A DNA stretch of 64,000 bases from Nemertoderma westbladi. Its lineage: Eukaryota; Animalia; Xenacoelomorpha. The translations under genes and the position numbers were made by a program. The stretch covers positions 1-64,000 of the forward strand of contig JAUCBJ010000270.1 in the NCBI GenBank assembly GCA_032718475.1, written 5' to 3'. Below the pieces are notes generated by a model, which had not been told where the DNA came from, made no database searches, and saw only the letters and a program-made list of their open reading frames with translations. Below, piece after piece: positions 18,574-52,742 of the stretch (the stretch's first letter is position 1; each line of letters begins with the position of its first letter).

Positions 18574-18726
18574 ATAATAGTGGTACTTTGCGAATTATTT
18601 CGAACTAACCTGAGAACATTATCATATGGCAGCGCATGACTACCAAACTAAAACTGAAACTATGGCACACTTACAGTACATTATATTAAATTAAAGTTTT
18701 GAAAAAACTGGGGGGGGGGGGGGGGG

Positions 18727-18949
18727 TGTAATGAGTGAAAGCTCAAAGGATCTAAGTTCAGGTAATCAGTATTGTCAGTTCGGGACTGTACCGGTAGTGA
18801 GTTGTTACTGCTGTACTGCAATACTGCAGTACTGCGATACTGTGATACTGCTGCTGTTTGTTGTATGTAATGCAGAATACTGGTGTGCGGATCTAATATC
18901 ATAATAATACTGATACTTAATATATGCAATATATGATCTACGCAACACA
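18727..18949 (+). repeat. Gypsy 3' LTR (223 bp)
   Basis: Direct repeat of 14325-14611, follows the poly-G PPT. Confidence 0.95.
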
Positions 18950-23518: not shown

Positions 23519-23596
23519 CCGCTCCCAGAAAATGGGATTTAAGTCTATAAAATATAACAAATCACAGTTTCTAAAATATAAAGATACTCTAAACAG

Positions 23597-29500: not shown

Positions 29501-32500
29501 GCCTCTCGGTTGTCCTCTGCAGTAGTACGCACTACCGAACAGGCGTTGGAAGGGCTTGAGATTATCCCAAAGGCCTGGATGGTCATCCAGTACTCCACCG
29601 GTTTCTGGTTGAGATCTCCTTCGGGCCACCACAGAAATCTTAGACTATCTCGATCCCTATCTAGCACCTTGACTTGTAAGAACATGCCTTCTATATCGGA
29701 GGCGAAAGCAATCGAATATTGTCTCAATCTTAAAAGAATTCCCAACAAAGATTGAAGTAAGTTGGGTCCGGGTAACAATTCAGAGTTAAGGGATTGACCC
29801 ATGTAAAGAGCGGAGCCATCAAACACTACTCTCACTTCATTTGGTTTACCGGGTTTAGGAACGTAATGGTGAGTTAAATAATACGTTCTTTCAGTCACAG
29901 GTGTTTCTTCCGGTACCCTCTCCGCGTATCCCTTATTAATAAATTTTTCCAGCTGTGTTTGATACATTGCTTTAGCTGAAGAATTAGCTGTAAGGCGTCG
30001 ATGGAGTTGCGCGATTCTTTTTTCCGCCAGGGGTCTGTTATTGATGAACTTCGGTTCTCTCTTGCGAAAAGGTAAACCGACTTCGTACCTTCCTTGATCT
30101 TTGAGGAAACGTGTAGTTGTCTCTTGGATCTGCTTGGCCCTTTCCTCTTCCACTGATAAAGCCTTATCGTAGGAATTGGGCTCTACCGCCTCTTGCGTAA
30201 AGAATCGTACAGCATGTTCATCTCGAGTCTTAGCATTGCAACGCTCAATGACGTCATTTAACTCGTCGTTGTAAGCTTCTCGTTCAGATGGATAGAGAAG
30301 TTGACATAAGTTCACTTGGTTTTGCCAAGCCTCGTTTTCCTTAAGGAGATCGATGGTATTCTCCTCATCAAAAAGCTGGTGAACGTCGTCGTTATCTGAG
30401 GAGTATGGAATTCCCTCAGTTGAATCGTCTCCTTCACTAGTATCATCTTCCCATTCACTCACCTGACAGACGCGCTCTTGCGGTAGTCTTTCTTTGAGTG
30501 TTCTACGGGAAGGGCCAGTAAAGTACCAACCTACTCTAGTTCTTACCGCATAGGTCTGTAGGGGCTGCGGTTGAGCAGGCCGTTTCTCTAATGTCTCCAG
30601 CGCCTCATGCGCGTTTTGGCCGATGAGTATTTGCACTCCAGGATAATCAGTCTGGAATCGAGGTATGTTAAGATGTTGGATGCTCTCATCCTCGTCCCAA
30701 TTATAAAGGTCTGCTTGAGTAGTAGCGAAGTTCTTTATAGCCACCATTTTCACTGACCTTATGCTGTGTTCTCCTAGTTCGTCTTGTGGGGTGGACAACG
30801 CGCCTACATAATAATCAGCTGTTATTGTAGATTTCCAAACTTGCATGATGCCAGACATGTTGAGCTTAGTTTGGAACTTGAGTTGTCCAGCAAATATATC
30901 TTCGGCTAGCTCTTTATCGATGAATGTTCCTGTACTACCGGAGTCAAGGAGGGCGTTCACTACATAACTCCTCTCAGGTCCGTGAACCCTTACTTGCACC
31001 ACAGGAAACTCTCGGATCCCTACATTGGAAGATGGCTCTTTCCAAGATGGTTGTCGCTCAGAAGTAGTTAGAGTAAAGTCGTTGTCTGTATCTTTTTCAT
31101 ATGTGAGTGCTCGATACACTGCGGTATTTATCATGTAACAGGATTCGTTTTCGTCGGAGAACTCGTCTGTGTAGAATCCTTCCATCTCAGATTGATCAGT
31201 GTCGTTCACATCACTGAATTGGACATGTAGCTCGGAATCACTTACCTGATTCGGACTATTTCGATCGAATTCAGCGTGCAACAAGATATGATGTTTCGCA
31301 CCACACTTTGCACACCTTATGTCAGAGAAACAGGTTCGCCGTTGGTGTCCTTGTCTGAGGCAATTATAACATAACCGCTTATCCCACATGACTTCGCGTC
31401 TCTCTGTTAATGATTTCTTTAGAAATTCATCACACCTATTCAAATGGTGGGTCCCGTCACACAGCGCACATTTCGGTTTGATGTTACTTACCTTATTCTG
31501 AGTCACATTGTGTACACTTGCCTTTTCTTCGGGCTTTCTCACCTGAATTCTCTTGGGAGACGTGGGAGGAGTTTTTCTTACCTGTTCTCTCCTGTCATTT
31601 GCTCGAGACTTGAATTTACTTACCTGATCTTTAGGCATTTTATTGACATAATAAGATCTATCAGTGTCTTTCCCGCTATCTTCTCCTTGAGAAGTCTGGC
31701 TTTCGCCGTCGTCTGTATAACACACTGGTGTTACCTTTCTCCTAGAGACGGGTTTTTCACTTACCTTGTTTTCCGGTGTCTTCTCTCTAGACAGTTTCAG
31801 GAGCTGTAGTTTCACTTCTCCATCTAGGAATGACATGAGATCAGCCATGGTAGGGTCTCGTCGTTGTTGTTCCATCATATATAGTACTTTCTTATCCCAG
31901 CGTGTGCCTACCCCACCTTTCGGTAAAGTAGAAGCCACAGCTCCAATGACCATAGAACTTTGGTATTCGTGAGACTTACCTAACCAATCTAATTGTCTAC
32001 AGATCTCTTGAATCTCATCGGAAAACTCTATTATCCCACTGCTGATGAACTTTCTGGGCGCTACTAATTTTGCATATAAATACTTAGCGATATTATTCCT
32101 ATTACCATACCTGATGTTTAGTGTGTCCCAAACTTGTCTTAATCCGTCTGGATGTCCAATAAACTTTAACGCCATTAACTTGGGAGATCCTTCCAAGCAC
32201 TCGATGAGGAATCTAAGTTTCTCTCCATTAGATAGCACAGAGTTCTGTATGTTATCTTTGTAATATTCATTAAAAGGTAACCATTTCATCTCATCTCCAT
32301 TGAACTTGACGATCTCTCCCACCTTTACCGCTTGCCGGGCTTCGGTTCTAGCCATTTGACGCGTAAAACTTTCTTGGGCCATCGTGTTATTTAATATCGA
32401 GTTATCGGTATATAAATTTCTCGGATTATGATCAGGTCTATAGGGAATGTCATTATCAACAGGTCTATAATTACCCTTAATAGGGTTCACTATAGGAGTT

Positions 32501-34662
32501 TCTACTTCGCTAGCAGTATATATGCGTGTAGGCTCCACACCTTGCGCATGCGATACTTCAGACCTAACAGGTTGACACATTGTTACAGAGGGTGGTGGTA
32601 TACCCTTTTGGGTATTTACTAATTTATCGCGTTCGAGCGCGATACTTTGCTGCACTTCTTGCAACTCTAGCCTACTTTCCCTTACTGTGCCCTTGAATTG
32701 CTGGACAGTCTCCTGCATCTGCCCGAGCAGGATATCCATCCCCCGCCGTCTCTCGTCCACCCATTCGACCGCCGAAGCGGGAGTCGCCAACGTTGTAGCG
32801 AGCGGACGAGGGACAACGGGCGACAAATCAGGAATATTTCGCTCGGGGTCCAGGACCTGAACTGTCTCCTGGGCAGTTCTACGGGGCACAGGTAGCTTAG
32901 TGCTATGCAGAGGGAATTTAGAGGTAACTTCAGGGAGTACAGGTGTGTCTATCACCGAAGGGGTGATTTCGAGAACAGGCCTAATTATTTCAGGCTCATC
33001 TACTATAGTAGGGAGTCTTTCTATTTTAATTATTTGGTCTGTGGGTTCTGTACTACCTAAGTTGGTGTTATTTAGTTGCCTTCTAACAGCTGGAGGCAAA
33101 TCAGGCAATTTCTGACGGTGGAATGTTCTTTTACGTCTACTTAGACGAGATCTATTTCCTTTGCCTTCAGTATCGGTGGTATCACCTTCCTCAGATGATG
33201 TATATCCCTGTCGTTTGGGAGTAGATCGATTCATCATCTGCATATTACTAGCTGTTAACTGTTTATTTATGCAGTCTTGATTCTCCTGAATGTTTTCCAA
33301 TTCTAATTGGGTGGTTTCCTCAGCCGCTCTCCGTTCTGCTTCTACCACTGCCTCCGCCACTTTTCTTTCCGCTTCGGCCGCTGCCTTTGCCTCTGCCGCT
33401 GCCACTTTTGCCTCTGCCGCTGCCTCTGCCGCTGCCGCTTTTCTTTCTGCTTCTGCAGCTGCCACTGCTGCTGCTACTGCCGCTGCCTTTCTGTCTTCTA
33501 TACGTTTTTTCTTTACTTGTTCTTCTTGGACTCTGGTGATGCGGAGTTGTTCATCAAATTTAGCCTGGTTCGCAGCCCTCATTTCCACATCGATGGCATC
33601 CAACACAAGCTTGGTTCCTTCACTATTAGGGCTAAGTCCCTCTAACCTTCTCCTCAACTCGTCATCACCTAAAAAACGTTGATAGTCTGACAGATAGAAG
33701 TCAATGGCATCCCTCTTATGCGGTTTCTCTGCCGTCGCTTCACTTTCCACTTGGGAAAAAGTAGCGTCTGTTGATTCTCCATGGGTTGAGCGCTCCTCTA
33801 GCTGAGCTTTCCACTGAGCTGTTCCTTGAACCTGGAGACTCACCCTTTGAAACCAAGTCTTTACGGCAACTTGCAACGACGTGTCTTGCCTTCGTTTAGA
33901 AGCCTCCTCAAAGGCCGATAATATTAGCCTGATTCGTAGAATTCTTTCTCTTACTTGATAAAGCAGCAATCCCTGCTCTTGAGGTCCTTGAGGTTGATGA
34001 AACAGTTGTTCTTTTAATCGCTCTATAGAGCTGAAGAATCCCTGTGCGTATCCGGCTGCGGACCTCTTCCACACAGCTGGATCGATGGTTTCCTTGGCTA
34101 CTCCCATCCGGTGTATGTCTTCCCAGGCAGCTTCTGATAAATCAAACGGGAGTCCGGGTCCGGGGAAGTTCCATTGCGACTCGACAATAGACTTCAGTTC
34201 TTCACTCGTGTATCCCGCATAACTATCTCTAGTTGACCGTTGACTTCTCGCCCAATCGATCTGGTGTTCTTCCACCGCGATCAATAACCTAGTGAGTACG
34301 GCTGCAGGAAGGATGAGAAGGGGATCCGTATAAACCGCATCCGTCATCTCTGCTCCGCGCTCGGGTGTCAGCTCTACAGTATCCTCACTACTGGAGCTGT
34401 TGGGCCGTTGAGAAGTAAGTTCTTGCCTCTCGGGTTGTTGCTGTTCCGCTGCTTCTTGGTCCCGCTTGACCTGAGCTCGGGTGCCTATGATAGACCTACG
34501 ATGTTGGACCAGCCTAGGTTCTTTTATTACTACTGGAGGGATGACTTTCCTCACAGTGGGAGGTGAACTGAACTTACGACCAGACGGTTGTACGTCTCTA
34601 TCTGAGTCGCAGATAGTTACATCTAATAAACTGTCTGACAGGTTCTGCTTAGTATCAGACAT
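26575..34662 (-). CDS. BEL/Pao Gag-Pol polyprotein, 2695 aa, with a long N-terminal extension
   Basis: KFNGDEMKW Gag, three zinc knuckles, LLDSGS protease, IYMDD RT, VFGDAS RNase H, GVDLFGP/SDKGTNF/GGSWERL integrase. Confidence 0.97.
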   Translation of the reverse strand: MSDTKQNLSDSLLDVTICDSDRDVQPSGRKFSSPPTVRKVIPPVVIKEPRLVQHRRSIIGTRAQVKRDQEAAEQQQPERQELTSQRPNSSSSEDTVELTPERGAEMTDAVYTDPLLILPAAVLTRLLIAVEEHQIDWARSQRSTRDSYAGYTSEELKSIVESQWNFPGPGLPFDLSEAAWEDIHRMGVAKETIDPAVWKRSAAGYAQGFFSSIERLKEQLFHQPQGPQEQGLLLYQVRERILRIRLILSAFEEASKRRQDTSLQVAVKTWFQRVSLQVQGTAQWKAQLEERSTHGESTDATFSQVESEATAEKPHKRDAIDFYLSDYQRFLGDDELRRRLEGLSPNSEGTKLVLDAIDVEMRAANQAKFDEQLRITRVQEEQVKKKRIEDRKAAAVAAAVAAAEAERKAAAAEAAAEAKVAAAEAKAAAEAERKVAEAVVEAERRAAEETTQLELENIQENQDCINKQLTASNMQMMNRSTPKRQGYTSSEEGDTTDTEGKGNRSRLSRRKRTFHRQKLPDLPPAVRRQLNNTNLGSTEPTDQIIKIERLPTIVDEPEIIRPVLEITPSVIDTPVLPEVTSKFPLHSTKLPVPRRTAQETVQVLDPERNIPDLSPVVPRPLATTLATPASAVEWVDERRRGMDILLGQMQETVQQFKGTVRESRLELQEVQQSIALERDKLVNTQKGIPPPSVTMCQPVRSEVSHAQGVEPTRIYTASEVETPIVNPIKGNYRPVDNDIPYRPDHNPRNLYTDNSILNNTMAQESFTRQMARTEARQAVKVGEIVKFNGDEMKWLPFNEYYKDNIQNSVLSNGEKLRFLIECLEGSPKLMALKFIGHPDGLRQVWDTLNIRYGNRNNIAKYLYAKLVAPRKFISSGIIEFSDEIQEICRQLDWLGKSHEYQSSMVIGAVASTLPKGGVGTRWDKKVLYMMEQQRRDPTMADLMSFLDGEVKLQLLKLSREKTPENKVSEKPVSRRKVTPVCYTDDGESQTSQGEDSGKDTDRSYYVNKMPKDQVSKFKSRANDRREQVRKTPPTSPKRIQVRKPEEKASVHNVTQNKVSNIKPKCALCDGTHHLNRCDEFLKKSLTERREVMWDKRLCYNCLRQGHQRRTCFSDIRCAKCGAKHHILLHAEFDRNSPNQVSDSELHVQFSDVNDTDQSEMEGFYTDEFSDENESCYMINTAVYRALTYEKDTDNDFTLTTSERQPSWKEPSSNVGIREFPVVQVRVHGPERSYVVNALLDSGSTGTFIDKELAEDIFAGQLKFQTKLNMSGIMQVWKSTITADYYVGALSTPQDELGEHSIRSVKMVAIKNFATTQADLYNWDEDESIQHLNIPRFQTDYPGVQILIGQNAHEALETLEKRPAQPQPLQTYAVRTRVGWYFTGPSRRTLKERLPQERVCQVSEWEDDTSEGDDSTEGIPYSSDNDDVHQLFDEENTIDLLKENEAWQNQVNLCQLLYPSEREAYNDELNDVIERCNAKTRDEHAVRFFTQEAVEPNSYDKALSVEEERAKQIQETTTRFLKDQGRYEVGLPFRKREPKFINNRPLAEKRIAQLHRRLTANSSAKAMYQTQLEKFINKGYAERVPEETPVTERTYYLTHHYVPKPGKPNEVRVVFDGSALYMGQSLNSELLPGPNLLQSLLGILLRLRQYSIAFASDIEGMFLQVKVLDRDRDSLRFLWWPEGDLNQKPVEYWMTIQAFGIISSPSNACSVVRTTAEDNREAFSKEVIDNIKRDIYMDDNLKSLPSVEEAIEVAKGTVECLKRGGFRLTKFTSNSREFLESIPAEDRGAKDLDLIKDDLPETKTLGLKWDTERDILFFQLKQRDNPVRTKRICLSILSTYFDPLGFISPVILIARSLVQQMWLENHSWDDPLKGELLKKWMKWEDSLPAIEDFIISRSYFGHVLPTYSYQLHVFGDASDMGIGIVAYLRVETPDGIKVALVTSKALINNKLKVPRAELKAALYATAIGRNVTEQIDYPLEKTVYWTDALLVLEYITNEVCQFSVFVTNRVAIILSRTMMDQWRHCPGTINPADITSRGATPKELVNTPEWLGGPDFLYREEEEWPPHLTTAEIRQAKGAEKVKPKTRASKSKLFKPAVDLSVLFTSGDDALDQKPTATTKEVLEIRDKDWKSGIPDISQGLSPLLQRAIRHYSSWYRLCKAVTYLKRCFHHRYSGTKTNSDDAPSTSARVHVVKDLPQYKVSNRFLKEKISYQEHDETNKQMLRLLQCYEDPDKYFLLLRNPQMRLRDRFSSTMIDGLIRVGGRLTNAPLSFDTKFPILIRNLDIQIKMIVDVHSKLYHAGRERVLSEIRTRYYFYKPRRALNQVLRNCIPCRKAFSRPLTQREAELPRERVSFYEPPFTNTGVDLFGPIEVYRARTIVKRWCVIFVCMTCRAIHLDMVNDLSTNSFVLSLRRQIARFGTSNTMRSDKGTNFIGANNEIQAYVKDWNKRQVDDQLRITASSWTFNAADAPWWGGSWERLIRSVKTAFHFIVPCRAYLTDELLRTLMEEIAAYLNERPLMPVSSNPDSLEALTPAHFLLKKPVAMLPRSEITDGDEYCRRTWQLMQLLSRRFADHFEKHYLPTLQLRTKWFAQQENVSAGDMVLIVDPDLPRKRWQTGRIIETYISSDGLVRSVELVVMRRNFKKPGIVFETQQLNRPVGRLCLLERDRELSGNYGRQETLPTTTSLIQPTSRNSPT

Positions 34663-36039
34663 GACTATGTATACCGTTGAATGTCTACTGCTGTATTACA
34701 GTCTGAGCAAGTCTAGTAATTCAGTATTAACTGCTAGCCTAGTAATTAATTACCGATACTGCTACTCAGTGTAGCGTGATATATATATAATATATTAGAA
34801 TACCGGTATACTTATAGTATATATAACTATATAAGTATTATTACAGACTAGGTTTATCACAGAATACCGGTATAATTTTAGCACAAATATATATAAATAT
34901 ATAATAGGCCTATCGGAATACCGGTATACAGCTTACAGTTTGTAGTATATATAATTCTGGAATAGAATTAATTACAAGTACCGGTATAATTTCAGCCTAG
35001 ATTTATAGAAATAAAGATAATAGGCCTATCGTAAATACCGGTATATCAATTATTTTAAATAATTGAACTTCTGAATTTCAGGGTTACTTTGTTACTTTAC
35101 TTACTTTATTACCGTTATTTGAGCAGTAGTCCAACTGATATGGAGACCTAATTGTTATATGGTAGGCCTACTATTTATAAATCGTTAGATTTGATTTATA
35201 ATATATATATACCCGTTTTAATGGGTTTTGTCAATGTTTGAAATAAATGTTATTATTTCTAGGGGTAATCACTACACAAAGCGGTATGCTTTCAGTGAAG
35301 TGTTACGTACAGGACACTAAAACAAATAATTCTAATTTACCTAAGTTACTTAATACTACAAATTACGTACAATTCGGGTGAGATTACAATCTCTAAATAA
35401 ACACAAAAATTTACAAAAAAACCCAAAATACGAATTTTTAGGGTAATTTTACAAGAAGTCTACTAACCAGCCTAACAAAGGGTTAGAAATCTGGTTATTA
35501 CAACGGACAGGGTACTACGGTATTTGAAATAATAAGTAGTAGTAAATACACTGCGTTGTCCAGATAGGAAAATACCACCGCCTGACGACCTATAGCCGTA
35601 TCGCTATAGGTTCTACGTTATGTATCACGGAGTGTTCCTACCTAGAAGTTAATAGAGCTAATCGAACGTGCCTATCAACCACTTTACAACACAAATATAA
35701 TGCCTACTAATTACTTTCGGAAAGCACTGTACACTAAACCCTAAATTAGGTACGAGTACTTGTATAACATATAATCTGTAGTTAAATATACTTGAACAGC
35801 TAAAAGAACCACGGCATCTGCTGGAGTGACCGATGCACAAAATCACCAGTCTTTACCTACACCAAGCAGCCCGTGTAGTACCGGGGTTAATTTAACTATA
35901 GCGGTATGTATAACAAACACAATTACTGTAGGAACAAACTTGGGGAATGAATGTTGCGAATAATCGCATAAACTCTGAATAATAAATATTACGCTACGCG
36001 TACAAACTACTCAAACAAAATGCAGACCAAACACTGACA

Positions 36040-36548
36040 GACTACTATCAAGCCTAAACAAACTACGGTATATGCAGACTCCGAAATAATTAGGTAGTAT
36101 GCGTTCTAACCCAGTAGTACGACTTATTCTTTAGTTGGGGGTTTACCTTACAGCATTCGCTGCCCCTACTTCCTAACCGTTCTTTATCGGACAAGTGATC
36201 TACACACGCTGCAATCCGTTCAGACCCAATAACAGCCAGACAACTATCCAGCCTACAAATTATCTAAATAAAATTATACGCTACCCGTACAGACTTACAC
36301 AAACAAAGTACAGACTAAACGATGGCAGACTACTCTCAAGCCTAAATAAACTACAGGACATGCAGACTCCGAAATGATTAGGGAGTATGCGTTCTAACCC
36401 AGTAGTACGACTTATTCTTTAGTTGGGGGTTTACCTTACAGCATTCGCTGCCCCTACTTCCTAACCGTACTTAATCGGACAGGTGATCTACACACACTGC
36501 AATCTGTTCAGACTTAACAGCAATCAGACAACAGCTCAGCCTACAAAT
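36040..36548. repeat. Tandem duplication (period about 288 bp) in the 5' leader of B
   Basis: Block tgcagactccgaaat...cctacttcctaaccgt present at about 36072 and about 36361. Confidence 0.9.
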
Positions 36549-36906
36549 TGTCTGTACAATCTGATCAGGTTTACACGCCTTCTGTTCAATACTAGCCTAC
36601 AAACAAATAAAACTGACAGAAATAAGTAAGCTCCAAAAGAAACAAGGGGTGTACAGTCCCTAATCTCTTAAACAGCCTACCGGTATACAACAATCCAATC
36701 GAATAATACTAATGTACTTATACTGGAAGTACCGGTTAGGACAGTTGGGCCTACGGACCTACAGAAGTACCGGTTCTGGCAGTTGGACCTACGGACCTAC
36801 AGCAGTACCGGTTCTGGCGGTTGGGCCTACTGACCTACTGAAGTACCGTTCAGGTTTACCGGTTGACCGGTACTTTCAACTTTATTGCTTACTGCAATAA
36901 AGAAGC

Positions 36907-36918
36907 TATATCCTTTAA
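36907..36918 (-). promoter_or_regulatory. Non-tRNA primer-binding site of B (TTAAAGGATATA)
   Basis: Directly abuts the 5' LTR end and is the exact reverse complement of the LTR site at 37682-37693. Confidence 0.8.
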
Positions 36919-38134
36919 TGTTCGCGCTTTTAGACCTTTGGCAGTTTAACCCACCAAATTAGGATGTCTTCTAGATAATAAATCACTTTTAGTCTATGAC
37001 AAGTATTTAATTCACTACACTAGTCGAAACCAATCTGTGCGCGATCATTCACCCGCTGGATATTCCCAGGAGATTGGGTTCGACGGTTTAATTTTATTGC
37101 TATGTAAGCCTAATGTATTATTCGACTGACAGTATTATATAATCTCTGACAATATTATTCACCTTCGGGGAATATTAACAGTTCCTTTAGGACGTGGCGC
37201 TTTATCTATATAAACAGAGTTATGACTTAAACTACTCACAACGATATGGCTTAATTATAATTCACATATATGGCGCATTCTTTAGGAATTGCTTCTTTAA
37301 CAGACTCACTCATACACAATGCTGCACAATACTGCACACTAATCTGCCAATCTTCACTGATTTTAGTCACATATAAAAGGAACACAAACTGACTCATGTA
37401 GGGTCTATCAAATAACATTAGATTCACTTCAAACCACTTTAACATAAATCACAATCGTTATTGGTAACCTTTCTCTCTTACCTTCGGTATATCAAGAATA
37501 TTGGGTTTTCGGGGTTATTTCTCGTTATTCCAATATAATAATTCATCAACCAATATAATGAATAACCGACAACAAATAGCAGTACACAGTATCGATTGAG
37601 CAGGTAATTTTAGCAGTTTCAGCAGTTATTACAAGCCGTGTGTCAGCAGTCAGTGTATTCCCAGATCAGTGATTCCATGAGTTAAAGGATATATGTCCTT
37701 ATAATTAAACCTACTAGTGTAAGACTAAAAACTGAAAACACGGAGGTGCCAAAAGCCGGTTCTTAGGCTCTGGGCAAAAACATAACACTGAACTACTGAG
37801 TTTCTGTATATACCTCCAACACAGAGACAACAAACGCTCTGATTGGTCAACCTGAACAACGAGAGAACAAAGAAACAAAGAAACGTCGACGTGGCAATAT
37901 CAGCTGCTAGCCGTCGTCATGGTAGCGACACTGTTTTCAAAGTATCCAGCTATTGCGTCACGAGATTGTGGATTATGTCCTCTAAAGTACAAATACAGTA
38001 CAAATACATAAGAAATGACTTTTATGTCCTCTAAAACACCAGTACAGCAAGGACACGGCCTTTTTATGCCTGGCAAACCAACTACAGAGTACTTTAAGGG
38101 AAAATAACCGGCTAATTACGCAAAAGCTTTTACA
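36919..38134 (-). repeat. 5' LTR of element B
   Basis: Direct repeat of 22303-23518. Confidence 0.97.
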
Positions 38135-38139
38135 GCAGT

Positions 38140-39652
38140 ATTGGTCTCTTATAACCGGTGAGGCAGAAAACAGTCTACGAACAGACAAACTTCGATAAAA
38201 CAAAATCCCGCGCAGCGAATCCTAAAATCAGGCTGACTCACTGACGGACTAAGGGGCTCGTATACTTTGCCGCGGTGTGATTTATATGGTTCGGCGAAAG
38301 GGACGCTAGCTAGGTGCAGAGATTTGGAGATGTCTAACTAGCGGGCAAAGTGCAGTACGGACAAAAGTTAATTTTATATATTTTGAGGTGTAAATAATTT
38401 CTAACGCGCGTGTGTTAATCCTGAACCGTCAAGATCAGTTTTGCTCCTTCATATATATAATTACTGGGTACGGTGTGCATTTTACGAATATTCTAATTTT
38501 GTAACTTGTAGGTCCAATACTCACGAATAATAAGGCTCCTTCCCCTCTTGCGTATTTCCAGGACTCAAATTCGGGCATAAGGTTAATGCTACGCCCAGAA
38601 TTCGGCAATTTTTAATTTACCAGGTCCCTAATACTAAGAAGAAATGTGTTAGTTTACTACAGTAGGCGTACGGTTACTAATAGCTAGCCTGGCGTCCTAT
38701 CTAGAATTTTGGTTACCTAGGTGGGCTTGGTAACTTCCTATCAGGATGTCGGCGGGGACACGGTAGATGTTAGTATCCCTAAATAGCCTCAATTTATTTT
38801 GCGCCTAGTCGTAAACTGCCCTACCGCCTGAACGGTACAATCCTAATTCAGGTGAAACACAGTAATCCTCCTAGCCTACAAGTTCTAATGCAATAGACAC
38901 CATTGTACTACAAATAGTCACAGACGCACCTGTACTTAGCAAGAGTTAGGCGTACAGTTTGCTGCACCCTACCAATGTGTATGCCTTGTACCGGTGTGCC
39001 TACGTCCTATCTGCGTACTAGTATCTCTGCCTGAGCTCTCCTCTCCTCTCCCCCCGTAGGAATATGAAGGTCTACTGCGGTTTTTTCCTGAATTAAAACA
39101 GTACAATTCCTAGATGTAATTTTAGGCGTACAGCGTGTCACTACCTCTACCTTCGATCTTTGGTCTTATACTTAGGTAGCAAGGCATCGAACGCTGTCTA
39201 ACCTTTCAGGCGATGGGCGAATAACTAAGAGTGATATTGCGGGTTGTCTCCTGTCTACATTCCTTAGATGTTCCCGTTCATTGCTGTGGCCCGATGTTTA
39301 GCCAGCCATCCTGTCCCTCAGTTGAGTTCACCGTGGTGAAGCATAGTAAAACAGATAGAAAAGGGCAGATGTGACAAGTATTTCTAACTTTTATTACAAA
39401 ATCAAACAATAACTATTATACAATAAACAATGTAATCTGAAATAAAGGTTTTTAAAGATAGCTATTGGTCCAGCGAATATACAACTTGTACGACATTGGT
39501 TACAATCTAATAACTACAATCTCGTTGGTAAATCTTACTTCGAGCAAATGCAATTAATTTGTAGCGGTCAATTTAAATGAGTTGAAATTCTGCACAAAAA
39601 ATAATTCGCACCTACTAGGATTTGGAACTCAATGCACACTACATATAATTTC
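38140..39652 (-). repeat. Main part of the 3' LTR of element C
   Basis: Matches 42573-44084 and is fused directly to gag at 39652/39653. Confidence 0.9.
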
Positions 39653-41640
39653 GGTCGACGTGCTCGCGTCCGTTGTGTCGTTCGAATTCTAACATTCCGT
39701 TTTGGAACATCGTCCACTGGTCTCCGTTGTTCGGTAGGCTCACAAGTCTTCCTCGAAGTCGTAGATTGCGATGTAAACTGATTAAACGGTCGCGTATCCA
39801 CTGGTCTCCGTTGTTCGGTAGGCTCACAAGTCTTCCTCGAAGTCGTAGATTGCGATGTAAACTGATTAAACGGTGGTCGGACGACAGCGTTTGAATCCAA
39901 AGGCCTTGTAGGCCTAAACGTCATTCGGTACGTGCAGTGCGTAACGGGTTTTGGTGTCGAAGGTTGACTCACCTGTTTTGTCGTCAGTAGTGCAGGTCCG
40001 GTCAACAAACTACTACGATCTGTAATCGGTGGGTTACTTACCTTGACTTTCAGAATGGGCGACGACGTTGCTCTTGGCGGTGTAAACTTGTCCGGAATAA
40101 CAAACCTGTGTTCCGTCGCACCATGGATAGGAGAAATATTACTACTACCAGCAATCGAAACAGGTTCCTTAGTCGTAATCGGTGCAAACATAGGAGTTAC
40201 TTGAGGGAATCTTTGACATAAGTCTTTGACCAATTGTCTTTCTCGCCCAGGTGCCCCTACACTTCCTTCCTTCATTCGTTCCTGAATTTGGCGGTGCCTT
40301 ACCTCTATCTGGTCCAAATCATGTCCGTCACGAGATCTCATCGATCGATCGCGGGCTTGTAGATCCAGATCTTCCTTCGCGTTGGCTAATTCTCTTGCCT
40401 TCTTCTCGAGTTCCAAATGAAGTTTAACTTCTTTCTCGCGTTGTTCCGTCTGTTGTTGTTGCGCCTCGAACTCCGCTTGTCGTATAGCTGATTGAGCCTT
40501 TATTTGCCGTTTTTTCATCTCGGCTCTCGCTTCTGAAACTAACCTTTGTCGCTCTAGCTCGGCCGCTGCTGCTGCCGCTTGTCGCTCTAACTCGGCCGCT
40601 GCTGTTCGTTGCGCTAACTCGGCCGCTGCCGCTTGTTGTGCAATGTCCAACTCTAGCCTTTCCATTTCGGCTGCTTCCAACTCAGCTTGTTCTTGCAGAT
40701 GAGAGATTCTCGCAACATTTGCAACGCGTAGTTTTTCTTCTTCTACCGCCGCTTGTGCCGTCAACAGTTGAGCTTGTTCCTCAACTTCCCGTTGTTGTCT
40801 ATAGTGCTGTTGTTGCTGTCTGGAAATTTCTGACGTCACTATACTTATCTCGCCAATTTCGCTGTGAATACTCAATAACGATTGGTCCAGTATTCCCAGT
40901 GCCGATTCGATTTGTACGGGTGAAGTTTCCCTCGTATATTCCGGCACGGTTTCCAAATCGCCGACGTCTTCGCCGCACATACGTAAGTGGTCCGTCAGAT
41001 GTTTCAATTGTCCATCCAGTCGGTACAGTTCCTGTTCTTCCTCGAGCTGCAATAATTCGTCCGAAACTGACTCACCTAACAACTGGTCCGCTTGTTCCTG
41101 TTGTATCTGCCTAATCGTCGACTTAAAGTTCGTCAGTTTCTCTCTAGCGATCATTAGTTTCTCGAGGATTCTAAGTTGAGTATCCACGTCCTGTCTCTGT
41201 CTAGCTAGATCTTGTAGACCAATTAGATTATCTACGGACTTATGTACTCTACTTTGTACTCTAACCTGGAGGGTGTAGAACTCAAACCGAGACATCGGAG
41301 CGGTTAGCTCGTCTAATATGCGTTGGCCTTCCCCAATACTCCTGGTAATATGCGCCATGTAGCCTCCGACGCTTCTAACCACACTCTCCTGGCTTCCTAC
41401 TGAACTTACCATGTCCGTTTCCCTATATCTAGGTTGCGGAACAGTTAGAAAGTCCTCGGTCCTGCCGTCGCCTCGTACTACGGCATCCGGTACTCCCGTT
41501 GGATGTACTGGTGACGCACACGGTGTAGGTTTGGTAGGCTCACAAGTCTTCCCCTGTAGTTCTTCCGCTGCTGACTTATCCGCGTCACATGAGTCATAGT
41601 CGGTAGGTGTATTCTTCGTATAGTCTTGTTTGTCACTCAT
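39653..41640 (-). pseudogene. Truncated N-terminal Gag extension of element C (coiled coil); Gag core and pol deleted
   Basis: Similar to the N-termini of B and D (for example ARQRQD vs SKRRQD vs SSRHQD), with an Ala/Glu/Gln coiled coil and an 84-bp tandem duplication. The ORF runs out into LTR sequence. Confidence 0.75.
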
Positions 41641-42439
41641 TTCGGTAGTTGTAAGTCAAGTAAAATGTGAGTGTCAAAGTATCAAATTTACCGTATTTAT
41701 ATCTAAACGGTACTAATTACAGTCATATAAAATTAGCCTACCGGCCGATTTTATAGCAGATGGATAAAATTAGCCTATGCGGCCAATTTTACAGCAAATA
41801 AATGTCACGGAATAAGTATATAATAAAATTAGCCTAGCGGCCAATTTTATAACAAATAAATCGGATAACGATATGCGTTATCAAAAAGGTAAATTAAATA
41901 CAATAATACGGACTAATTCAGCAATGAACAAAGAAATCGTACAGAATGCATAAATACTTGAGACAGTGGAACCCACAATAATTTTAACTAATACGGTAAT
42001 GCCTAACTTATTTATGCAACCTTTCAAACTCACCCACTCCAATAATTCTCCAGAAAAACAGATTCCCAGATACAAACCGGATGTGAACCTTTCCGTTTCC
42101 AGCGTTGCGGACGAAGTGCGATTTTCCCAACCAAAGTTGTTGGGTTATCTATCTCCCAAACTTGCTAAACACGGTCTTGCTCTCGTTACAGTCTAGAAAT
42201 GAGTTCTGAATCCTGAAAAACAAAAGAGTTAGGTTTTACTTTTACGAAAATTTTGTACCGGTACAATATGGTATTTAAACCCTTTTAAACACCGGTATTC
42301 AATTCCAAATATTTTACACGCGGTTCAAATCAAATTTTATTTCAAAAAATTAGCACTTAGGTAATCAAATATAAATTTTACCTCAAAATACAAAAATTTT
42401 CAAATAACTTTAGTCCTACCGAACCGTAGTTCAGTAAAA

Positions 42440-42450
42440 CATATTCCTAC
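42440..42450 (-). promoter_or_regulatory. Non-tRNA primer-binding site of C (GTAGGAATATG)
   Basis: Directly abuts the 5' LTR end and is the exact reverse complement of the LTR site at 43489-43499. Confidence 0.8.
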
Positions 42451-44242
42451 TATGCGAAGAGACAGTAACAATACCTGCAATATCTTACTGTAAAGTTTGT
42501 GAATCAAATCATAATCAGACCTTCTAACCAAAACAGTAAACTCCAAGTAAGCGAATATATATATATTGCAGTATTGGTCTCTTATAACCGGTGAGGCAGA
42601 AAACAGTCTACGAACAGACAAACTTCGATAAAACAAAATCCCGCGCAGCGAATCCTAAAATCAGGCTGACTCACTGACGGACTAAGGGGCTCGTATACTT
42701 TGCCGTGGTGTGATTTATATGGTTGGGCGAAAGGGACGCTAGCTAGGTGCAGAGATTTGGAGATGTCTAACTAGCGGGCAAAGTGCAGTACGGACAAAAG
42801 TTAATTTTATATATTTTGAGGTGTAAATAATTTCTAACGCGCGTGTGTTAATCCTGAACCGTCAAGATCAGTTTTGCTCCTTCATATATATAATTACTGG
42901 GTACGGTGTGCATTTTACGAATATTCTAATTTTGTAACTTGTAGGTCCAATACTCACGAATAATAAGGCTCCTTCCCCTCTTGCGTATTTCCAGGACTCA
43001 AATTCGGGCATAAGGTTAATGCTACGCCCAGAATTCGGCAATTTTTAATTTACCAGGTCCCTAATACTAAGAAGAAATGTGTTAGTTTACTACAGTAGGC
43101 GTACGGTTACTAATAGCTAGCCTGGCGTCCTATCTAGAATTTTGGTTACCTAGGTGGGCTTGGTAACTTCCTATCAGGATGTCGGCGGGGACACGGTAGA
43201 TGTTAGTATCCCTAAATAGCCTCAATTTATTTTGCACCTAGTCGTAAACTGCCCTACCGCCTGAACGGTACAATCCTAATTCAGGTGAAACACAGTAATC
43301 CTCCTAGCCTACAAGTTCTAATGCAATAGACACCGTTGTACTACAAATAGTCACAGACGCACCTGTACTTAGCAAGAGTTAGGCGTACAGTTTGCTGCAC
43401 CCTACCAATGTGCATGCCTTGTACCGGTGTGCCTACGTCCTATCTGCGTACTAGTATCTCTGCCTGAGCTCTCCTCTCCTCTCCCCCCGTAGGAATATGA
43501 AGGTCTACTGCGGTTTTTTCCTGAATTAAAACAGTACAATTCCTAGATGTAATTTTAGGCATACAGCGTGTCACTACCTCTACCTTCGATCTTTGGTCTT
43601 ATACTTAGGTAGCAAGGCATCGAACGCTGTCTAACCTTTCAGGCGATGGGCGAATAACTAAGAGTGATATTGCGTGTTGTCTCCTGTCTACATTCCTTAG
43701 ATGTTCCCGTTCATTGCTGTGGCCCGATGTTTAGCCAGCCATCCTGTCCCTCAGTTGAGTTCACCGTGGTGAAGCATAGTAAAACAGATAGAAAAGGGCA
43801 GATGTGACAAGTATTTCTAACTTTTATTACAAAATCAAACAATAACTATTATACAATAAACAATGTAATCTGAAATAAAGGTTTTTAAAGATAGCTATTG
43901 GTCCAGCGAATATACAACTTGTACGACATTGGTTACAATCTAATAATTACAATCTCGTTGGTTAATCTTACTTCGAGCAAATGCAATTAATTTGTAGCGG
44001 TCAATTTAAATGAGTTGAAATTCTGCACAAAAAACAATTCGCACCTACTAGGATTCGAACTCAATACACACTACATATAATTTCCAACGCTCTACCGACT
44101 GAGCTACTGAACCACTTGACTAATCATCGTACAAATAGATATAGCAAATACAAATGAGGACTTAATGTAATCTTTTAACAAAGTTAATTCGAATAAAATA
44201 AAATTTTGAAAATCCACGGCGTTTAGAGAATATAATTCTATA
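42451..44242 (-). repeat. 5' LTR of element C (1792 bp)
   Basis: Near-identical to 22181-22302 plus 38140-39652. Sense-strand termini TATAGAA...CGCATA. Confidence 0.9.
44035..44113 (-). ncRNA. tRNA-like Pol III cassette inside the U3 region of the C LTR
   Basis: A box TAGCTCAGTCGG, B box GAGTTCGAATCC, T-run terminator. The anticodon arm is not canonical. Confidence 0.55.
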
Positions 44243-47069
44243 CTGCCACACTATGGGACTACTTTTATTTTTCATCAAAATTATAATTCCCTGCTTATGA
44301 GATTTTAACTTTTTTTAGGTTTGGTAGTGTTCATCTATAGTTGTTTCACCAACAGCCCGAATTTCGTAGGATTTCATTGGACGATTACAAAAATATAGTG
44401 GGTGGGCCGAATCGCCCCCCCCCCCCCCCCCCCCCCCCCCCAGTGGTGCTAATGGTCAAAACACCCCAGTGGTAATAGGGTTAAGCCCGTTACGAGTCAT
44501 GTAACTAGCAGGACTTGTGATATTTCACCTTGCTGTGTTGCATCACTTGCTTATTGCATTGCATCATTAACTTGCCGTATGTATTCAATCTTATTGTTAT
44601 AGTTATTATTATATTATTATATTATTGCTGTACCTTGTTGATGAATATACAAGACCAGAGATCACACCAACTTGATTTTCACACGGTTAGTGCTGACTGC
44701 ACCCTGTCTGTAATAGATTCGGTGTGCGTCCATAGTACTGCAATATTATTCCCCAACTAGTAACTATAATCTACTGATCCTATAATGTATGCAGCATGAG
44801 TGAACTGTGCACTTACCACGCACTAGGTCCAACATAGTGTCCTACCTGTAATATATATAAGTCAAACGTACATTTACCCGCCAACAACACAACATAACGG
44901 AATGGTTTACACGTAAATATTACTTTATTCCCTTGAAGCAGTTTATAGTGCCGAAGCTATATACTTACAGTAATTGATTGTACATTCAGACCAGATATAT
45001 ATATTAGATAATATATGTATACATAAACATTCGTGAGTGTTCCTGCTACGCGGCAGGTACCCCAAGGCACTTGATAGCACTCATAAGAGTTACAAACAAA
45101 CTCACTTTGTGGCGGATGTGGGGTTAGCCTCCCATAAAAGCCTTGACAGTGAAATATCACTTTCCAACACTGCCCCCAAGACAGTGTTCACCCCCCCCCC
45201 CCCTCGTACAATTAATTACATTAACATCTTGAACACCAATGTGCGCTGTGGTAGTGGACTATAATAAAATACTGCAGTTTTATTATACCTACTTTGCTCA
45301 GCAGTTTACGTGTAAGTAAACTACTTCAATTACGTTTAGAACTAGTGTTGTGTTATTTGCACATGTTTTTGTTTTGCTTGATATTGAGAACTGAATGCTT
45401 TATCGACGAATTGTTAAGGGATTTGAATCATTACATTATCCACGAGGTGTAAATTCTTCGAACGTGTTGAGCTGTGAGACCTACGTTCCCCGCGGGAGGT
45501 GTAAATCATAAGCTGGCGGCACGTGAAGCGTAAAGTTGCAAAACAGGGAGAACGTTATTGACAAAAGATAATATAGACAATCCTGCGATCATTTGGTGTG
45601 ATACTGATTGTTTGGTTTGATGTGTTATAGTATTATAATAACATTTGTGAAATCTGTTGTGCGGCATTGTGCGAGTGCAACTATTGCAGGTGCATTTCCG
45701 TGCGAATTGTTGATTGAGTCAGAGAGTTTACTTGTGTGACTGTGGTTTAATTTGACATTATTAGTCGTACGTTTGCGAAGTCAGTAGAAGGCCAAACACC
45801 CGAGGGAGTGTATAGGCAATCACTGCGTGTGAAACGGCTAATTACAGATAAATTACTACATTCATTACCATAGCTTAATAATTTAGTCAGCGTTTGTATG
45901 GTATGTTACATACGCTGTTATCAAAATAGTTTTACCCTTCCGGTTTTTGTATTAAAGTAACTAAGCGATTTAAGTAACTTGGTATTTTATTGTTTTACTG
46001 TACATTCGCCCTACACTTACATTTTGTTGTTTATTATTATAAACTTGTAACATAGTGTTACAACCCCCAAATATCGTAAGTACGTTCTATTATCTACGTA
46101 CAGAAATAATTAATTATTACATCTTTCTTTAGGCCATTGAACTGTTTATTTAACAGGCAGACACAGGCACGATATTTGACATATATTAATCCTTGTATTT
46201 AGTTCAAGGGAACCAACATCCTACGCTAATTTCATTCTGAACATAACCATTTGTTTGGATTACAGGCGACTTCAGACATACATATTTATTCATAACAATA
46301 TTATTTGCAGAAATAATCTCGGCAGTATTTGTGCTTAGGATTTGAAATAAGCCTTGCACATTAATTAGGTGCTCGTGATTTATTGCGACTTGCAACTTAA
46401 TTTCATCCCAAGGCGATTTACATCCTGCCCCACAACGACATACCATTCCAGACAATTTGTCGCTGAGTGCTTCGACTCAGCCATATACTTACTATAAACC
46501 ACGAGACTAAACTCCTTTGTTTGACCTACTCAGTCGCGACATACAAATTCTCCTACCATTATTAGTGCTGTTTACTTCCATTGAATGTTGAGACGTGATA
46601 CACCCCCACAGCCGACAACATACAATAGCATGGCTCAACATTTCCCATACCTATTGATTCTGTGTGACTTAATTGCTTACCCAGTTCGTGGAATTCAGAG
46701 TCAACCCCTTCCTATTAAATAGTAGTCCATAGCAATGTTCTTAGGATAGTATCACTGAATTGACAGTAACGAACGACATCCACTCGGATTAGAGTAGACA
46801 GCGACTACTAGCGGTGAAACAAGAATTGTAAAAGCACTTTAACGATACTTGTTACTCCCATTCTCTTTGAAAGGCGTTTCTTCGTTTATTTGAGATAAAG
46901 CCACCCAGTGGGAGCAGAGAGTATTACATTCTTATTAATAGCCAAATTATTCATTTCTCTAGGTGGCGCAATTATAATAACTTCTTTGGTGATTAAATAT
47001 TTATTTTGCAGGATAAATACGTAGTTAACACGTCTTTATAGTGTGCATAGATTACATTAACTTGACACC

Positions 47070-50000
47070 ATGTCAGAGTCAGATATTGACACTGAACCAT
47101 TTGTTCAACACCCACCGGTCACAGCTGCCCCTCATACTAACATTCCCCCTTCCGTTGACCAGGTTGCACCACCTGTCCCCAGCAAGAAATCTTGGGACAG
47201 GTCCCACATCAGAACTAGACTATTTACAGGAGGGATTGTGGATGATATAAATGTAGATCCACCCATAGTTAGTGTTGTACAAACTGGAGTGAGCTCACCA
47301 TCACTACTAGTAATGAACATATCCCCCATTATGTTCGCCCCCTCACCCAACAGCAATGAGGAATTACACCCCCCGATTGATAACACCCTTTCGCCGAACA
47401 TTACAGATGAAACAATTCCTGTTCACCTGCAAGCAAGACTAGCTTACTTGCTGGAGGAGATCGGCAGTTACCGGGAAAGGGTGGCAACCAGAACTGTAGC
47501 TGCTGAACAGGAGGTTTATGGGGAAGAATTACATCACTTAATAAATCTACATTATGCCCACCCGGAACTTCGTAAGTTCTTCAGGTTCATTGATATGGTG
47601 TGGGCAGACCTATACAAACTAAAGGTTCCCCAGGTTCCATGCGGCACGGAAGAGCTGTCCGCTATAGTTTATGACCATGTAGCTGACTTCAATCGGCATA
47701 TAGGAACCCTCACACATGAGCTACAGACGGTGCAGCCTGACCCTAGGACGAACCCAGCTGCATATTTTAAGGTTAAGGAACTAGTTTGCGGCTAGTTTTA
47801 TCCGCCTTCCGGGAAGTATCTAGTAGACATCAAGATGCGGAGCTCGCTGCCATAGATGGCAGACAGTTAGCGGAAGTGGCAGTAATAGCCGGGAAGGCAC
47901 TCGCCCTTGAAAGGCTACATGGACCGACCATTCCCCCAGGTGTGGACATAGCCTGTTCCGGTACCGTAGCACTGAGCCATCAGCGTACAGACTCAGAGGA
48001 TTCCGGTGAAGGTGAGGACATGGATGCGATATCCCATTATCTGCAGTCTTATATAGCTGTGGTAGGAGAGACCGAACTTCGTAAGAGGTTAAAGGGTTTG
48101 GCCCCATCCAGCCCTGAATCAGCAGCAGTCCTAGATGAGATAGACGCTGAGGGCGATCTGCGGGCACAGATAGAGGGACATAATGCTGTTAAGGAAATAT
48201 TAGAAATGGAATTGCAGTTAAACGCAATCCAGATACGTAATAAAGCCGAACCGCGGGAAAACAAGCGCATGGAAGCTGATATAACTTTACGAAACTAAAT
48301 AGCACTAAAAATATTTAGTGAAAATCAGTGTAAGGAAAGGTCAGGCTCAACCAGAGGACGAGACTGGCCGATTAGAGGGACTTATGCTTTGTCGGTTGAA
48401 GGAAACTCCACCGACGCTAGTGAAAGTGGTAACCACTCTCAACGCTGACGAAAGAGAGCTGTTAGAGTGGCGCTGTCGGACCTGCCTCCATATAATAGGG
48501 ACGGGATACCCCCAAAGCAGACGGATTTAGATCATCTGAGACCACTGGATTCGCGGCCCCCCCTGGGTAGGTTACGGGAGGAAGATGAGCCAAATGATCC
48601 CGGGTTCGAGATCTATATAGATCCGCGGGAATGGAAACCACCTCAGTTGGTTGCAGTCCCATTGCGCGGTACATCAGCCGAGCCGATCAATCCAGCAGTA
48701 GTTCCACACTCGACCATGACAGCAACCCCCTACCGAAATAGAGATGTTGTACCACCAGTAGGGGCACCAATTGTAACTAAAGAAATACCCAATGAAGCCC
48801 CAAACTCCCATATTATCTCTCGTACAGCTTGTCTAGAATGCCCCAGACCTAACTACCTGTCTAGTACCTTGGCCAGGACAAAGGAGAAAAGAATGTCATT
48901 TGGCACTGGAATATCCCCAATCGCCAGCCTGGCAGAAAATCCCAAAGTATCACATACATTACCCCATAGTAACGAAGGAGGAAACAATAATGATTGGACA
49001 TCTAGGGATGAACTAAATCCCTGCTCGACGATATATTACAACCGTCAAAACCAACTGGATGATAGGCACCTGGCGCCCAGATCAGCCCACTTAGCCGCAA
49101 AGGCGTCGGCGCCAGTGGGGACCCGGCATCCAGGACCAGGAATGCTGTTATCATCCGGCAGACGGATATCAGCCCCCCCTGATGGGCAAAGGGAAGCCTA
49201 CCCCAGAAGTGGAGTCAGGTTTGTGCCAGGCATCCCAGGTGAAGTATTTCCCTCCTTGTGGTGACCCTCCTTCACCTTCAGAGGCTTATGCACCCCTGTT
49301 AGACCCCAGCCTACATTCGAACATTCGAACAGACAACATACGAAGTGGGGCTTCTCTTGCGGTCCTCCCAACCCAACCTATTTAATAACAAGATGCTTGC
49401 GCATAAACGCATTTTACAACTGGAAAGGTGTCTCACCGCCAACTCGACAGCTCATTGGTTATATAAGGAGCAAATGACCAAGTTCATAAGCAAGGGATAT
49501 GCGGAACTGGTCCCACCAGACACCCCCAAGACTGACCGGACATACTACCTTACTCACCATTATGTCGAACAGAAAGACAAACCAGGACGTATTAGGGTAG
49601 TGTTCGAAGGTTCAGCTAAGTACCAAGGACAATCCCTAAACTCGGAACTATTACCCGGACCCAACTTGTTGCAGTTTCTACACAGAATATTAATGCACAT
49701 GCGACAATATGCCGTCGCCTTCTCTTCAGACATAGAGGGTATGTTCCTGCAAGTGAAAGCATTAGATATTGACCGGGACAGCATGCGTTTCTTGTGGTGG
49801 ACAGAAGGAGACTTAAATTCTGATCCAGTAGAGTATCGCATGACCATTCAAGCGTTCGGTATCATTTCCAGCCCATCGAACTCATGTTCAGTGCTACATC
49901 GAACAGCTGATGACCATCGGGATGAATTTCCACCATCAGTCACAGATAATATCAAAAGGGATTTTTACATGGACGATAACTTGAAATCAGCCCCGACAGT

Positions 50001-52742
50001 CAAGGAAGCCATAGACATTGCTCAAGGGACAGTAAACTGCCTGAAACTCGGAGGATTTCGCCTGACGAAATTCACTACCAATTCCCACGAGTTTCTAAAG
50101 GCCATACACCCCGCATAGCGTGGCGACACCAAACTAGACCTAAAAAAGGACGACCTGCCAGAGACTAAGATGTTAGGACTTCGTTGGCTAACAGAAAGCG
50201 ATACTATGGTATTCAAAGTCAAGTTGAGAAAGGGCGAAACTCAAACCAAATGCATTTGCCTCAGCATACTTAGCACTTATTTCGACCCTCTCGGATTTAT
50301 CAGTCCAGTTATTTTACTGGCTCGAGATCTCGTTCAGCGAATGTGGAAGGAGAATGATAGTTGGGAAAACCCCTTGACAGGGACACTATTGGAAGACTGG
50401 TGGCGATGGGAACGGTCCTTGCCCGACTTGGAGAAGTTTTCCCTACCCAGAGCATATTTCCCAAATGTAGACTCCCTGCAGACTTACGAACTCCGTGTAT
50501 TCGGTGACGCGAGCAGCAAAGGCGTCGGGATTGTAGCTTACTTTAGATGCGAAACCCCGGACAGTATCACAGTAGCTTTAGTTGCCTCGAAGGCCCTTAT
50601 AAGGCCAATAGCTAAAACCAAAGACACTTTGACTATAACCAGAGCTGAGCTTTAGGCAGCCATATACACTACCATCATTGCCAAGAACGTGTTGGCGCAG
50701 ACATGCTATACGGTAGTACAGTAGTAAGGACAGTTTACTGGACAGATGCTGCGTTAGTTTTAGAATATTTGACTAACATGGCATGCCAGTTCAGCTTGTA
50801 TGTGACAAACCATGTAGCGCAGATCCTAAAGGACACGGACATCAAACAGTGGAGACATTGCTCTGGATTGTTAAATCCAGCCGACATTGCTTCTCATGGC
50901 GCTACCCCTCAGGAACTGATAGATACTAAGTGTTGGTTGCAAGGACCTGCCTTTTTGCAAGGCCCCGAAGGTAGTTGGCCCCAAAATTTAACGCCTGCAG
51001 AGATAAGGCAGCAAGTGAAGGGCACGGAAATCGCTAAGTCTAAGAACATGGCGTCCAAATCGAAGCTATTCAAAAACATCTACATATCTTCACTACATGT
51101 GCGCGAGAGTGTGAGCCCACAGAGCACCCCAGATAGTGAAGCCCTCATTATCCTCTCCTTTCCAGTCTTGACTGACGGCCTTTCACCGCTCATTAGCAGG
51201 GCCATGAATCACTATAGTTCCTGGCACAAACTTTGTCATGCCGTTACCATACTGAAGCGTTATGTGTACTACTGCTGTAATAAAAACAAAATCACACAAG
51301 GTAAATTATTGGAGCACGAAGTAGACTATACCAACAGGCAGCTACTCCAACTATCCCAAATGAAAGAAAAGGCTCCAACGTACGAATACCACCTCAAGCA
51401 CCCCGCTACGCAGTCAAACGATAAATTATCCAGTGTGATGTTCGACGGCCTAATCAGAGTGGGAACTAGACTCACAAACGCTCCCCTTTCCCACGACACG
51501 ATATTTCCCATTATTATCTACGATCCCACCATACAATGAAAGATAATACAGGATGTACACAATCAGTTGTTGCACGCCGGGAGGGAACACATACTTAGTG
51601 AAGTACGCACTAGGTATTACTTTGTATAACCCAGGAAAGCCTTAAATAAGGTTCTGCGCAGCTGTTTACCCTGTATGAAACTGTATTGCCAACCCATGAC
51701 TCAGTTAGAAGCTCCCTTACCTAAGGAACGCGTTAGCTGCTACGAGCCCCCCTTTACACATACGGGTGTAGACTTATTTGGGCCGATAGAGGTCAAGAGG
51801 GCTTGAACCATGGTTAAAAGATGGTGCGTTATCTTCGTCCGCATGACATGCCATGCCATACAGCTGGACATGGTTAATGACATCTCCATGAATAGCTTTA
51901 TCCTGTGCTTATGTAGACAAATCAGTTGATACGGCACCAGCAATACAATGAAGTCAGATAAAGGGACTAACTTTATAGGGGCAAACAACGAGATAACACG
52001 CTCTATAGAACAGTGGAACCAGGATCAAGTTGATGAACTGTTGAAGGTTTCTGCTTCCAGCTGGACCTTTAATGCCACAAATGTACCCTGGTGGGGCGGG
52101 AGCTGGGAAAGATTAATTCGTAGCATGAAGGTAGCTTTCCATCACATACTACCCTGCAAGGCTTACCTAACAGACGAGATACTCCGTACTATCTTAGCGG
52201 AAGTCACTGCTTACCTGAATAGTCAACCCCTCATGCCCGTTTCAGCCAGCCCCAAAGCGCTAGAGGTCTTCACACCAGCCCACTTTCTGATGAAAAAGAA
52301 AGTAGTGTTGTTACCAGTCTCGACACCCGAGGATGGTGACGAGTTATTGCGACAGACCTGGAAGATGACTCAACTGCTGTTGAGCCGATTCGCAAACCAC
52401 TTTGAGCGATTTTATCTTCCCATCATATAACTCAGGAACAAATGGTTTTCCGTGAAAGAAGATGCCAGAGTAGGAGACATGGTATTAGTAGTGGATCCTG
52501 ATCTCCCGCGGAAATATTGGCAGACAGCACGCATAGTAGAAACACACGTCAGCGCGGATGGCCTGGTAAGATCAGTGGATCTAGTAGTGCTGAGGGAAAA
52601 GGGTAAGCTAAACTTCGTCCCCCAGAGACTCAACCGTCCTATAGGCCGCCCCTGCCTGCTAGAAATGGCACACGAGGAATCTGGCAACTACGGCAAGCAA
52701 GAACTCAAGCCAACAGACTTGACATATTTTTTATTGGAATAG
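47070..52742 (+). pseudogene. Degenerate BEL/Pao gag-pol of element D (many stops; Gag core and protease deleted near 49330)
   Basis: Fragments closely parallel B: DAISHYLQSY, FYMDD, VFGDAS, SDKGTNF, WWGGSWERL, ESGNYGKQE. Confidence 0.92.

Follow-up and report, generated by a model that had tools for sequence, protein, structure and literature searches.

In a window of 64,000 nucleotides of Nemertoderma westbladi DNA (the whole stretch analysed here), the LTR retrotransposons B, C and, probably, E carry directly behind the 5' LTR, at offset 0, a stretch of 11-12 nt with a perfect complement inside their own LTR. In none of the three is TGG present in the first 30 nt after the LTR. Judging from sequence, we consider it likely that B and C, and probably E, would start reverse transcription by Tf1-like self-priming, in which a word of the 5' LTR, as RNA, replaces the tRNA primer. 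In addition to these elements, BEL/Pao relatives from metagenome contigs were examined, and in most of these the complement is complete only across an intron in the LTR.

Element C and its paired words

Element C lies on the minus strand and includes the following features:

42451..44242, minus strand: 5' LTR of C, 1792 nt, TA...TA ends, 99.1% identity to the 3' copy
38135..39652, minus strand: main piece of the C 3' LTR, its 5' part deleted
22181..22302, minus strand: last 122 nt of the C 3' LTR, split off by the insertion of B with a 5-bp duplication, GCAGT
39568..41655, minus strand: sole long ORF of C, 695 aa from stop to stop, with a gag-like coiled coil, truncated by a deletion running into the 3' LTR
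42440..42450, minus strand: predicted primer-binding position GTAGGAATATG, offset 0 after the LTR, no TGG
43489..43499, minus strand: candidate self-primer CATATTCCTAC, 1049 nt upstream of the LTR end
39056..39066, minus strand: second copy of the C word, in the C 3' LTR
42414..42439, minus strand: hairpin behind the C site, z -4.2

The last letters of the 5' LTR, TTCGCATA, end at 42451 on the minus strand, and this end is set by the second copy, which diverges into CTGCC after the same CATA at 22181. CTGCC is also the 5-bp duplication around C (22176-80 and 44243-47), and a related contig departs from the window sequence at 44243, in agreement with the outer boundary of the element. At 45169, 11 nt matching the left flank suggested an alternative right end; this was rejected, as the related contig breaks at 44243 and the letters in question are an arm of the E hairpin. 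C is not a complete element: pol and the polypurine tract are deleted, B is inserted within the 3' LTR, and the first ~158 nt of that LTR are missing because the deletion fuses the ORF to it.

For the C ORF, no match was found in Pfam, in a search of longer proteins or in a representative search, and the Atlas returned nothing above 0.79. Its N-terminus aligns weakly with that of B (3 of 1000 shuffles scored better) and the BEL N-terminal profile did not pick it up, and for these reasons C is not filed as BEL with confidence; on sequence it is a weakly supported, putative member of BEL/Pao. The termini of C are TA...TA, not the TG...CA of BEL/Pao, and the BEL relative L078 likewise ends in TA. 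Within the U3 part of the C LTR, tRNA-like A and B boxes are found at 44040-44133 (minus strand), partly in both copies; ARAGORN and Rfam gave no match for this stretch, which is perhaps a SINE head.

The reverse complement of GTAGGAATATG occurs in the whole window only at 43499-43489 and 39066-39056, which confirms the coordinates first proposed for an 11-mer directly behind the C 5' LTR and its exact complement. The comparison with shuffled LTRs that had been suggested as a check was run on both elements for which pairing had been claimed. Among 20,000 dinucleotide shuffles of the 1792-nt C LTR, a complement of at least 11 nt at offset 0 arose in 6, and in 105 when offsets 0-5 were allowed. 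Of the 2786 other internal positions of C, five, all AT-rich, are likewise matched by an 11-nt complement in the LTR, and C alone therefore corresponds to a p of about 0.0003-0.002. An initiator-like context had also been proposed for C; there TCATATT fits the initiator pattern YYANWYY, which is weak evidence, and B does not fit it.

Elements B and E and their surroundings

For B, the analysis covers the following features:

36919..38134, minus strand: 5' LTR of B, 1216 nt, TG...CA, 1209/1216 identical to 22303-23518
22303..23518, minus strand: 3' LTR of B
36907..36918, minus strand: predicted primer-binding position TTAAAGGATATA, offset 0
37682..37693, minus strand: candidate self-primer TATATCCTTTAA, 775 nt upstream of the LTR end
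37694..37704, minus strand: TTATAAGGACA, adjoining the site of the B word, directly before it
26575..34695, minus strand: gag-pol ORF, 2706 aa, with Pfam DUF1759, Peptidase_A17, Integrase_H2C2 and DUF5641, and BEL homologues
36880..36902, minus strand: hairpin behind the B site, z -4.0

B belongs to BEL/Pao and is both intact and young. It has a single gag-pol ORF with a DUF1759 gag, a Pao peptidase A17/RNase H region, an integrase and DUF5641, together with TG...CA LTRs, a short target duplication and a polypurine tract, and it has 974 homologues, the best at 41-45% in the RT region, with homologues from sea urchins, anemones, molluscs and fish at about 40-45%. The element also features a 5' leader of 2.2 kb rich in ACCGGT words (34665-36918, minus strand), a 3' non-coding region of 3 kb (23519-26575, minus strand) and splice-donor-like words in the LTR downstream of the site. 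Here, a complement of 12 nt or more at offset 0 arose in 6 of 20,000 shuffles of the LTR, and none of 13,387 other internal positions has a 12-nt complement in the LTR.

The claims that the words of B and C pair perfectly, abut the LTR and are 11-12 nt long, and that the two LTRs lack similarity, both stand; the LTR ends were matched as well by 258 of 300 shuffles. The further claim that two independent cases make chance unlikely stands as far as a match beyond chance is concerned, but the two cases are not entirely independent of each other, because one mechanism was probably inherited by both. The original prediction had overlooked E as a third case, as well as the primers split by an intron in the relatives described below. 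The E features, all on the plus strand, are as follows:

44485..45148, plus strand: probable 3' part of the E 5' LTR, ending in AAAAGCCTTGACA, B-like, boundary inferred
44517..44528, plus strand: candidate self-primer GTGATATTTCAC, 632 nt upstream of the site
45149..45160, plus strand: predicted primer-binding position GTGAAATATCAC, offset 0
45166..45188, plus strand: hairpin behind the E site, z -4.0
47061..52715, plus strand: gag-pol in pieces, pol 57-64% identical to B

The LTR boundary of E had to be inferred because only one E LTR lies within the window; its end, GGGTTA...AAAAGC...ACA at 45148, resembles that of B. The pair of 12-mers was found by an inverted-pair scan and was equalled by 1 of 20,000 shuffles, and the E word is nearly palindromic. 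We regard E as a probable third self-matching case. A general similarity between the B and E LTRs was considered and rejected, as the alignments are weak (51/300 and 9/300 shuffles as good) and the end motif alone recurs.

The elements are nested at four levels, the probable LTR of E holding a transposon that holds C, which in turn holds B. The transposon has inverted ends CC(T/C)TATTACCACTGGGG flanked by TTAA (window 21183-21230 and 44440-44484), and we take it to be a piggyBac-like DNA transposon. Elsewhere in the window are a fourth BEL element, D (385-6069, plus strand), which is 38% identical to B and has its 5' end outside the window, tandem arrays of 40-nt and 38-nt units (9664-13116 and 8897-9124) and a gypsy-like element, A (14325-18950, plus strand), with RT, RNase H, rve and DUF7047. 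After the LTR of A there is neither TGG nor a self-match (best 5 nt), and a missing TGG alone therefore proves nothing.

Structures around the sites

Tf1-type self-priming involves a helper structure beside the site, of the U5-IR kind. In B, C and E, a strong hairpin lies at most 5 nt behind the site, a shared feature noticed after the fact, whereas the values for 13 relatives and A are all above -1.8; a comparable hairpin was present in 1 of 33 background windows. For the U5 ends, folding gave no significant structure (z -0.9 to -1.7). Upstream of the site, B has TATA-like words at -119 and -10 and C has one at -104, none of them at the expected distance of about 30 nt, and in both elements poly(A)-like signals follow downstream. 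Folding of R, U5 and site was also tried as evidence for the start site, with a helix probability of 0.93-1.0 for RNA starting at the word and no helix when the start lay 31-100 nt earlier; it was dropped because all three foldable chance 11-mers behaved alike (0.85-0.99). When longer 3' ends were folded, the helix probability was 0.54 for B, 0.0 for E and 0.88 for C.

Self-matches in BEL/Pao relatives

The relatives were taken from metagenome contigs, as the best 80 of 450 confirmed BEL loci, and repeats flanking the ORF were sought in all 80; viral contigs yielded no relatives. Twenty loci were examined and 14 with a readable LTR end were kept, leaving out two duplicates (L050, L063) and four loci in which the repeat does not end at the LTR end (L026, L031, L072, L074). 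Matches were scored at offsets 0-4, either contiguously or across one GTRAG...YAG intron.

With this scoring, 11 of the 14 relatives match their own LTR over 10-15 nt, nine of them across an intron of 74-164 nt and two contiguously. Among mismatched pairs of the 18 elements, at least 10 nt was reached in 9/306 and 11 nt in 4/306, the latter all among three loci with one common site. This bears out the covariation across families that had been predicted from B and C. The covariation is also seen within a close pair of relatives, L022 and L028, where TCGAAC with GTTCGA in one corresponds to TCAAAC with GTTTGA in the other, a compensatory change of G:C to A:U. L022 (1-9352) also has a 2.6-kb direct repeat at both contig ends, including LTR and binding site, and is a tandem or circular element.

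The best match often starts just after a pyrimidine tract and AG, and the missing part precedes an upstream GTAAG. For two loci the second half is already long by itself (11 nt in L068, 10 nt in L034) and reaches 15 and 14 nt, respectively, with the splice. The contiguous 10-nt self-matches of L011 (1374-1725) and L040 (1685-1880) sit on separate tree branches. Under the strict filter, no match was scored for L025, in which the donor is changed in one copy and the site in the other, nor for L043, which reaches 11 nt without the pyrimidine filter. The tRNA-type relative L045 has the same gag-pol domain set as B and shares its RT tree, but differs by the TGG start of its site, TGGTCTATTCGAGCCGGAT, which we take to resemble the 3' end of tRNA-Tyr, and by having no self-match (5 nt). 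In a blind survey, an own-junction match was found in 22 of the 80 loci vs 211 of 6320 mismatched pairs. Chance alone would account for about 3 of the 22; an LTR is missing from many of the contigs, and among the loci are several near-copies, the 82 rows comprising 73 different proteins.

Two observations connect the intron-split and contiguous forms. In L069, the 3' LTR contains a 117-nt intron and exactly that intron is absent from the 5' LTR, so that a DNA form with the intron precisely removed exists, even if different copies are combined in this contig. Further, the 11-mer TTATAAGGACA has three occurrences in the 612,771 bases of the loci, each immediately upstream of a primer's first half (L034 once, L069 twice), and its place before the B site thus ties the contiguous word of B to the split ones. 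In a quick, midpoint-rooted tree with long branches, B, E and D group on a long branch separate from the elements with split primers, so that an intron loss is plausible and the B form could also be ancestral or separate.

Priming mechanism and alternatives

As the complement is located where minus-strand synthesis begins, with no tRNA site, self-priming is the best reading of the pairing, and as it is complete only across the intron in nine relatives, the pairing acts at the RNA level. In the sequence of events that we propose, the site at offset 0, perfectly complementary to the LTR in B, C and E and without TGG, would serve as the binding site, and its partner would usually be built, as the relatives suggest, by joining two exon ends over a GTRAG...YAG intron of the LTR. 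The 5' LTR part of the transcript would then fold onto the binding site, and the element's RNase H may cut behind the paired word to leave a 3'-OH, as in Tf1. During plus-strand synthesis, the primer sequence would be written back into the site, and this would account for words that drift while their pairing stays perfect. B, C and E may represent a ready-made, intron-free form, most simply obtained through copying of spliced RNA. Several points count against this reading: the TATA-like words are not at the expected distance, three of the 14 relatives have no match under the strict filter, and, if the word is internal to the transcript, it would demand a stop in plus-strand copying. In its broader form, the proposal is that self-priming is common in BEL/Pao, with the spliceosome joining LTR exon ends into the primer, and that B, C and E escaped this dependence by fixing the spliced form and gaining a hairpin; to this we give a little better than an even chance.

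Alternatively, the elements may still prime themselves, but with a word that is supplied by the 3' LTR part of one RNA, or by a short LTR transcript of its own, and that primes another RNA molecule; the site would then lie upstream of the main start. This arrangement would explain why most relatives retain the intron, since spliced RNA would be the primer and unspliced RNA the template, and the poly(A)-like signals that B and C carry beyond the site would suit it. It also draws on TTATAAGG, which in B, L034 and L069 precedes the site by 10-11 nt and, read as a TATA box, would place the start after the word; by the pattern used, however, such a motif is absent near the site in 11 of the 14 relatives. 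Since Tf1 and Tf2 of S. pombe and Tj1 of S. japonicus, moreover, prime with a 5' segment according to passages of PMC4600332 and PMC5341516, we consider a 3' LTR or separate-transcript source unlikely.

It is improbable, in our assessment, that the helix is instead a structural or regulatory RNA element (for packaging, dimer formation or a splice-dependent switch) and that the primer is a host RNA such as a tRNA half. Half-tRNA primers do occur in copia groups according to a passage of PMC6317226, and element A, with neither TGG nor self-match, counts for a host-RNA primer. Against it, the paired words vary by family, keep to the splice junction of the element concerned and begin at offsets of 0-4 nt from the LTR, the place at which DNA synthesis has to begin, and a fixed host RNA would not fit words that co-vary family by family. 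The further 11-nt complements within C and the near-palindromic word of E would speak for chance, against which stand three cases at offset 0, while an inverted duplication at the DNA level is countered by the intron-bearing LTR DNA of nine relatives, in which the full complement is non-contiguous. Chance and inverted duplication are largely refuted, and we give them hardly any weight.

Relation to known systems and significance

The primer of Tf1 is 11 nt long and is released by an RNase H cut. Known or predicted self-primers also include Tf1/sushi, Tcn1 and TAR/Houba/Osr-1, for which a passage of PMC6317226 uses a complement of at least 10 bp at 0-5 bp after the 5' LTR, and fungal self-primers appear in a listing within PMC6934838. 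Like Tf1/Tf2, Tj1 and Tf1/sushi in these passages, B, C and E have no tRNA site and carry a short 5' LTR word complementary to the adjoining site, and like the plant elements Tcn1 (gypsy) and TAR/Houba/Osr-1 (copia), their complements have at least 10 bp and lie within 0-5 bp of the LTR. Unlike Tf1, which belongs to Ty3/gypsy, B is a BEL/Pao element, the distance from word to site is 630-1050 nt, and the word of the relatives is split by an intron; in B, C and E, moreover, the word is at most a putative 5' end of the transcript. B thus appears to work like Tf1 and is not a member of Tf1/sushi, a Ty3/gypsy chromovirus lineage. Tcn1 and TAR/Houba/Osr-1 belong to plant gypsy and copia lineages, and neither a BEL/Pao case nor an intron comes up in the passages of PMC6317226 drawn on here.

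In the openly accessible literature searched, neither self-priming in BEL/Pao nor a primer built across an LTR intron was found, and term look-up returned no relevant passage in PMC554778, PMC3118150, PMC2774666, PMC6238403 and PMC8220671, nor at 12 of 18 places in PMC3601003. How large a share of BEL/Pao elements begins reverse transcription with no tRNA site is a question that this literature does not seem to have taken up. If the proposed reading is true, a self-primer would exist in a third LTR superfamily, spliced in most families and ready-made in others. Replication of these elements would then be tied to host splicing, while the elements would be freed from the tRNA supply and from silencing by tRNA fragments. 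The reading would also provide a simple rule for annotating the LTR ends of BEL elements, and the intron-free and intron-bearing forms represent a natural comparison.
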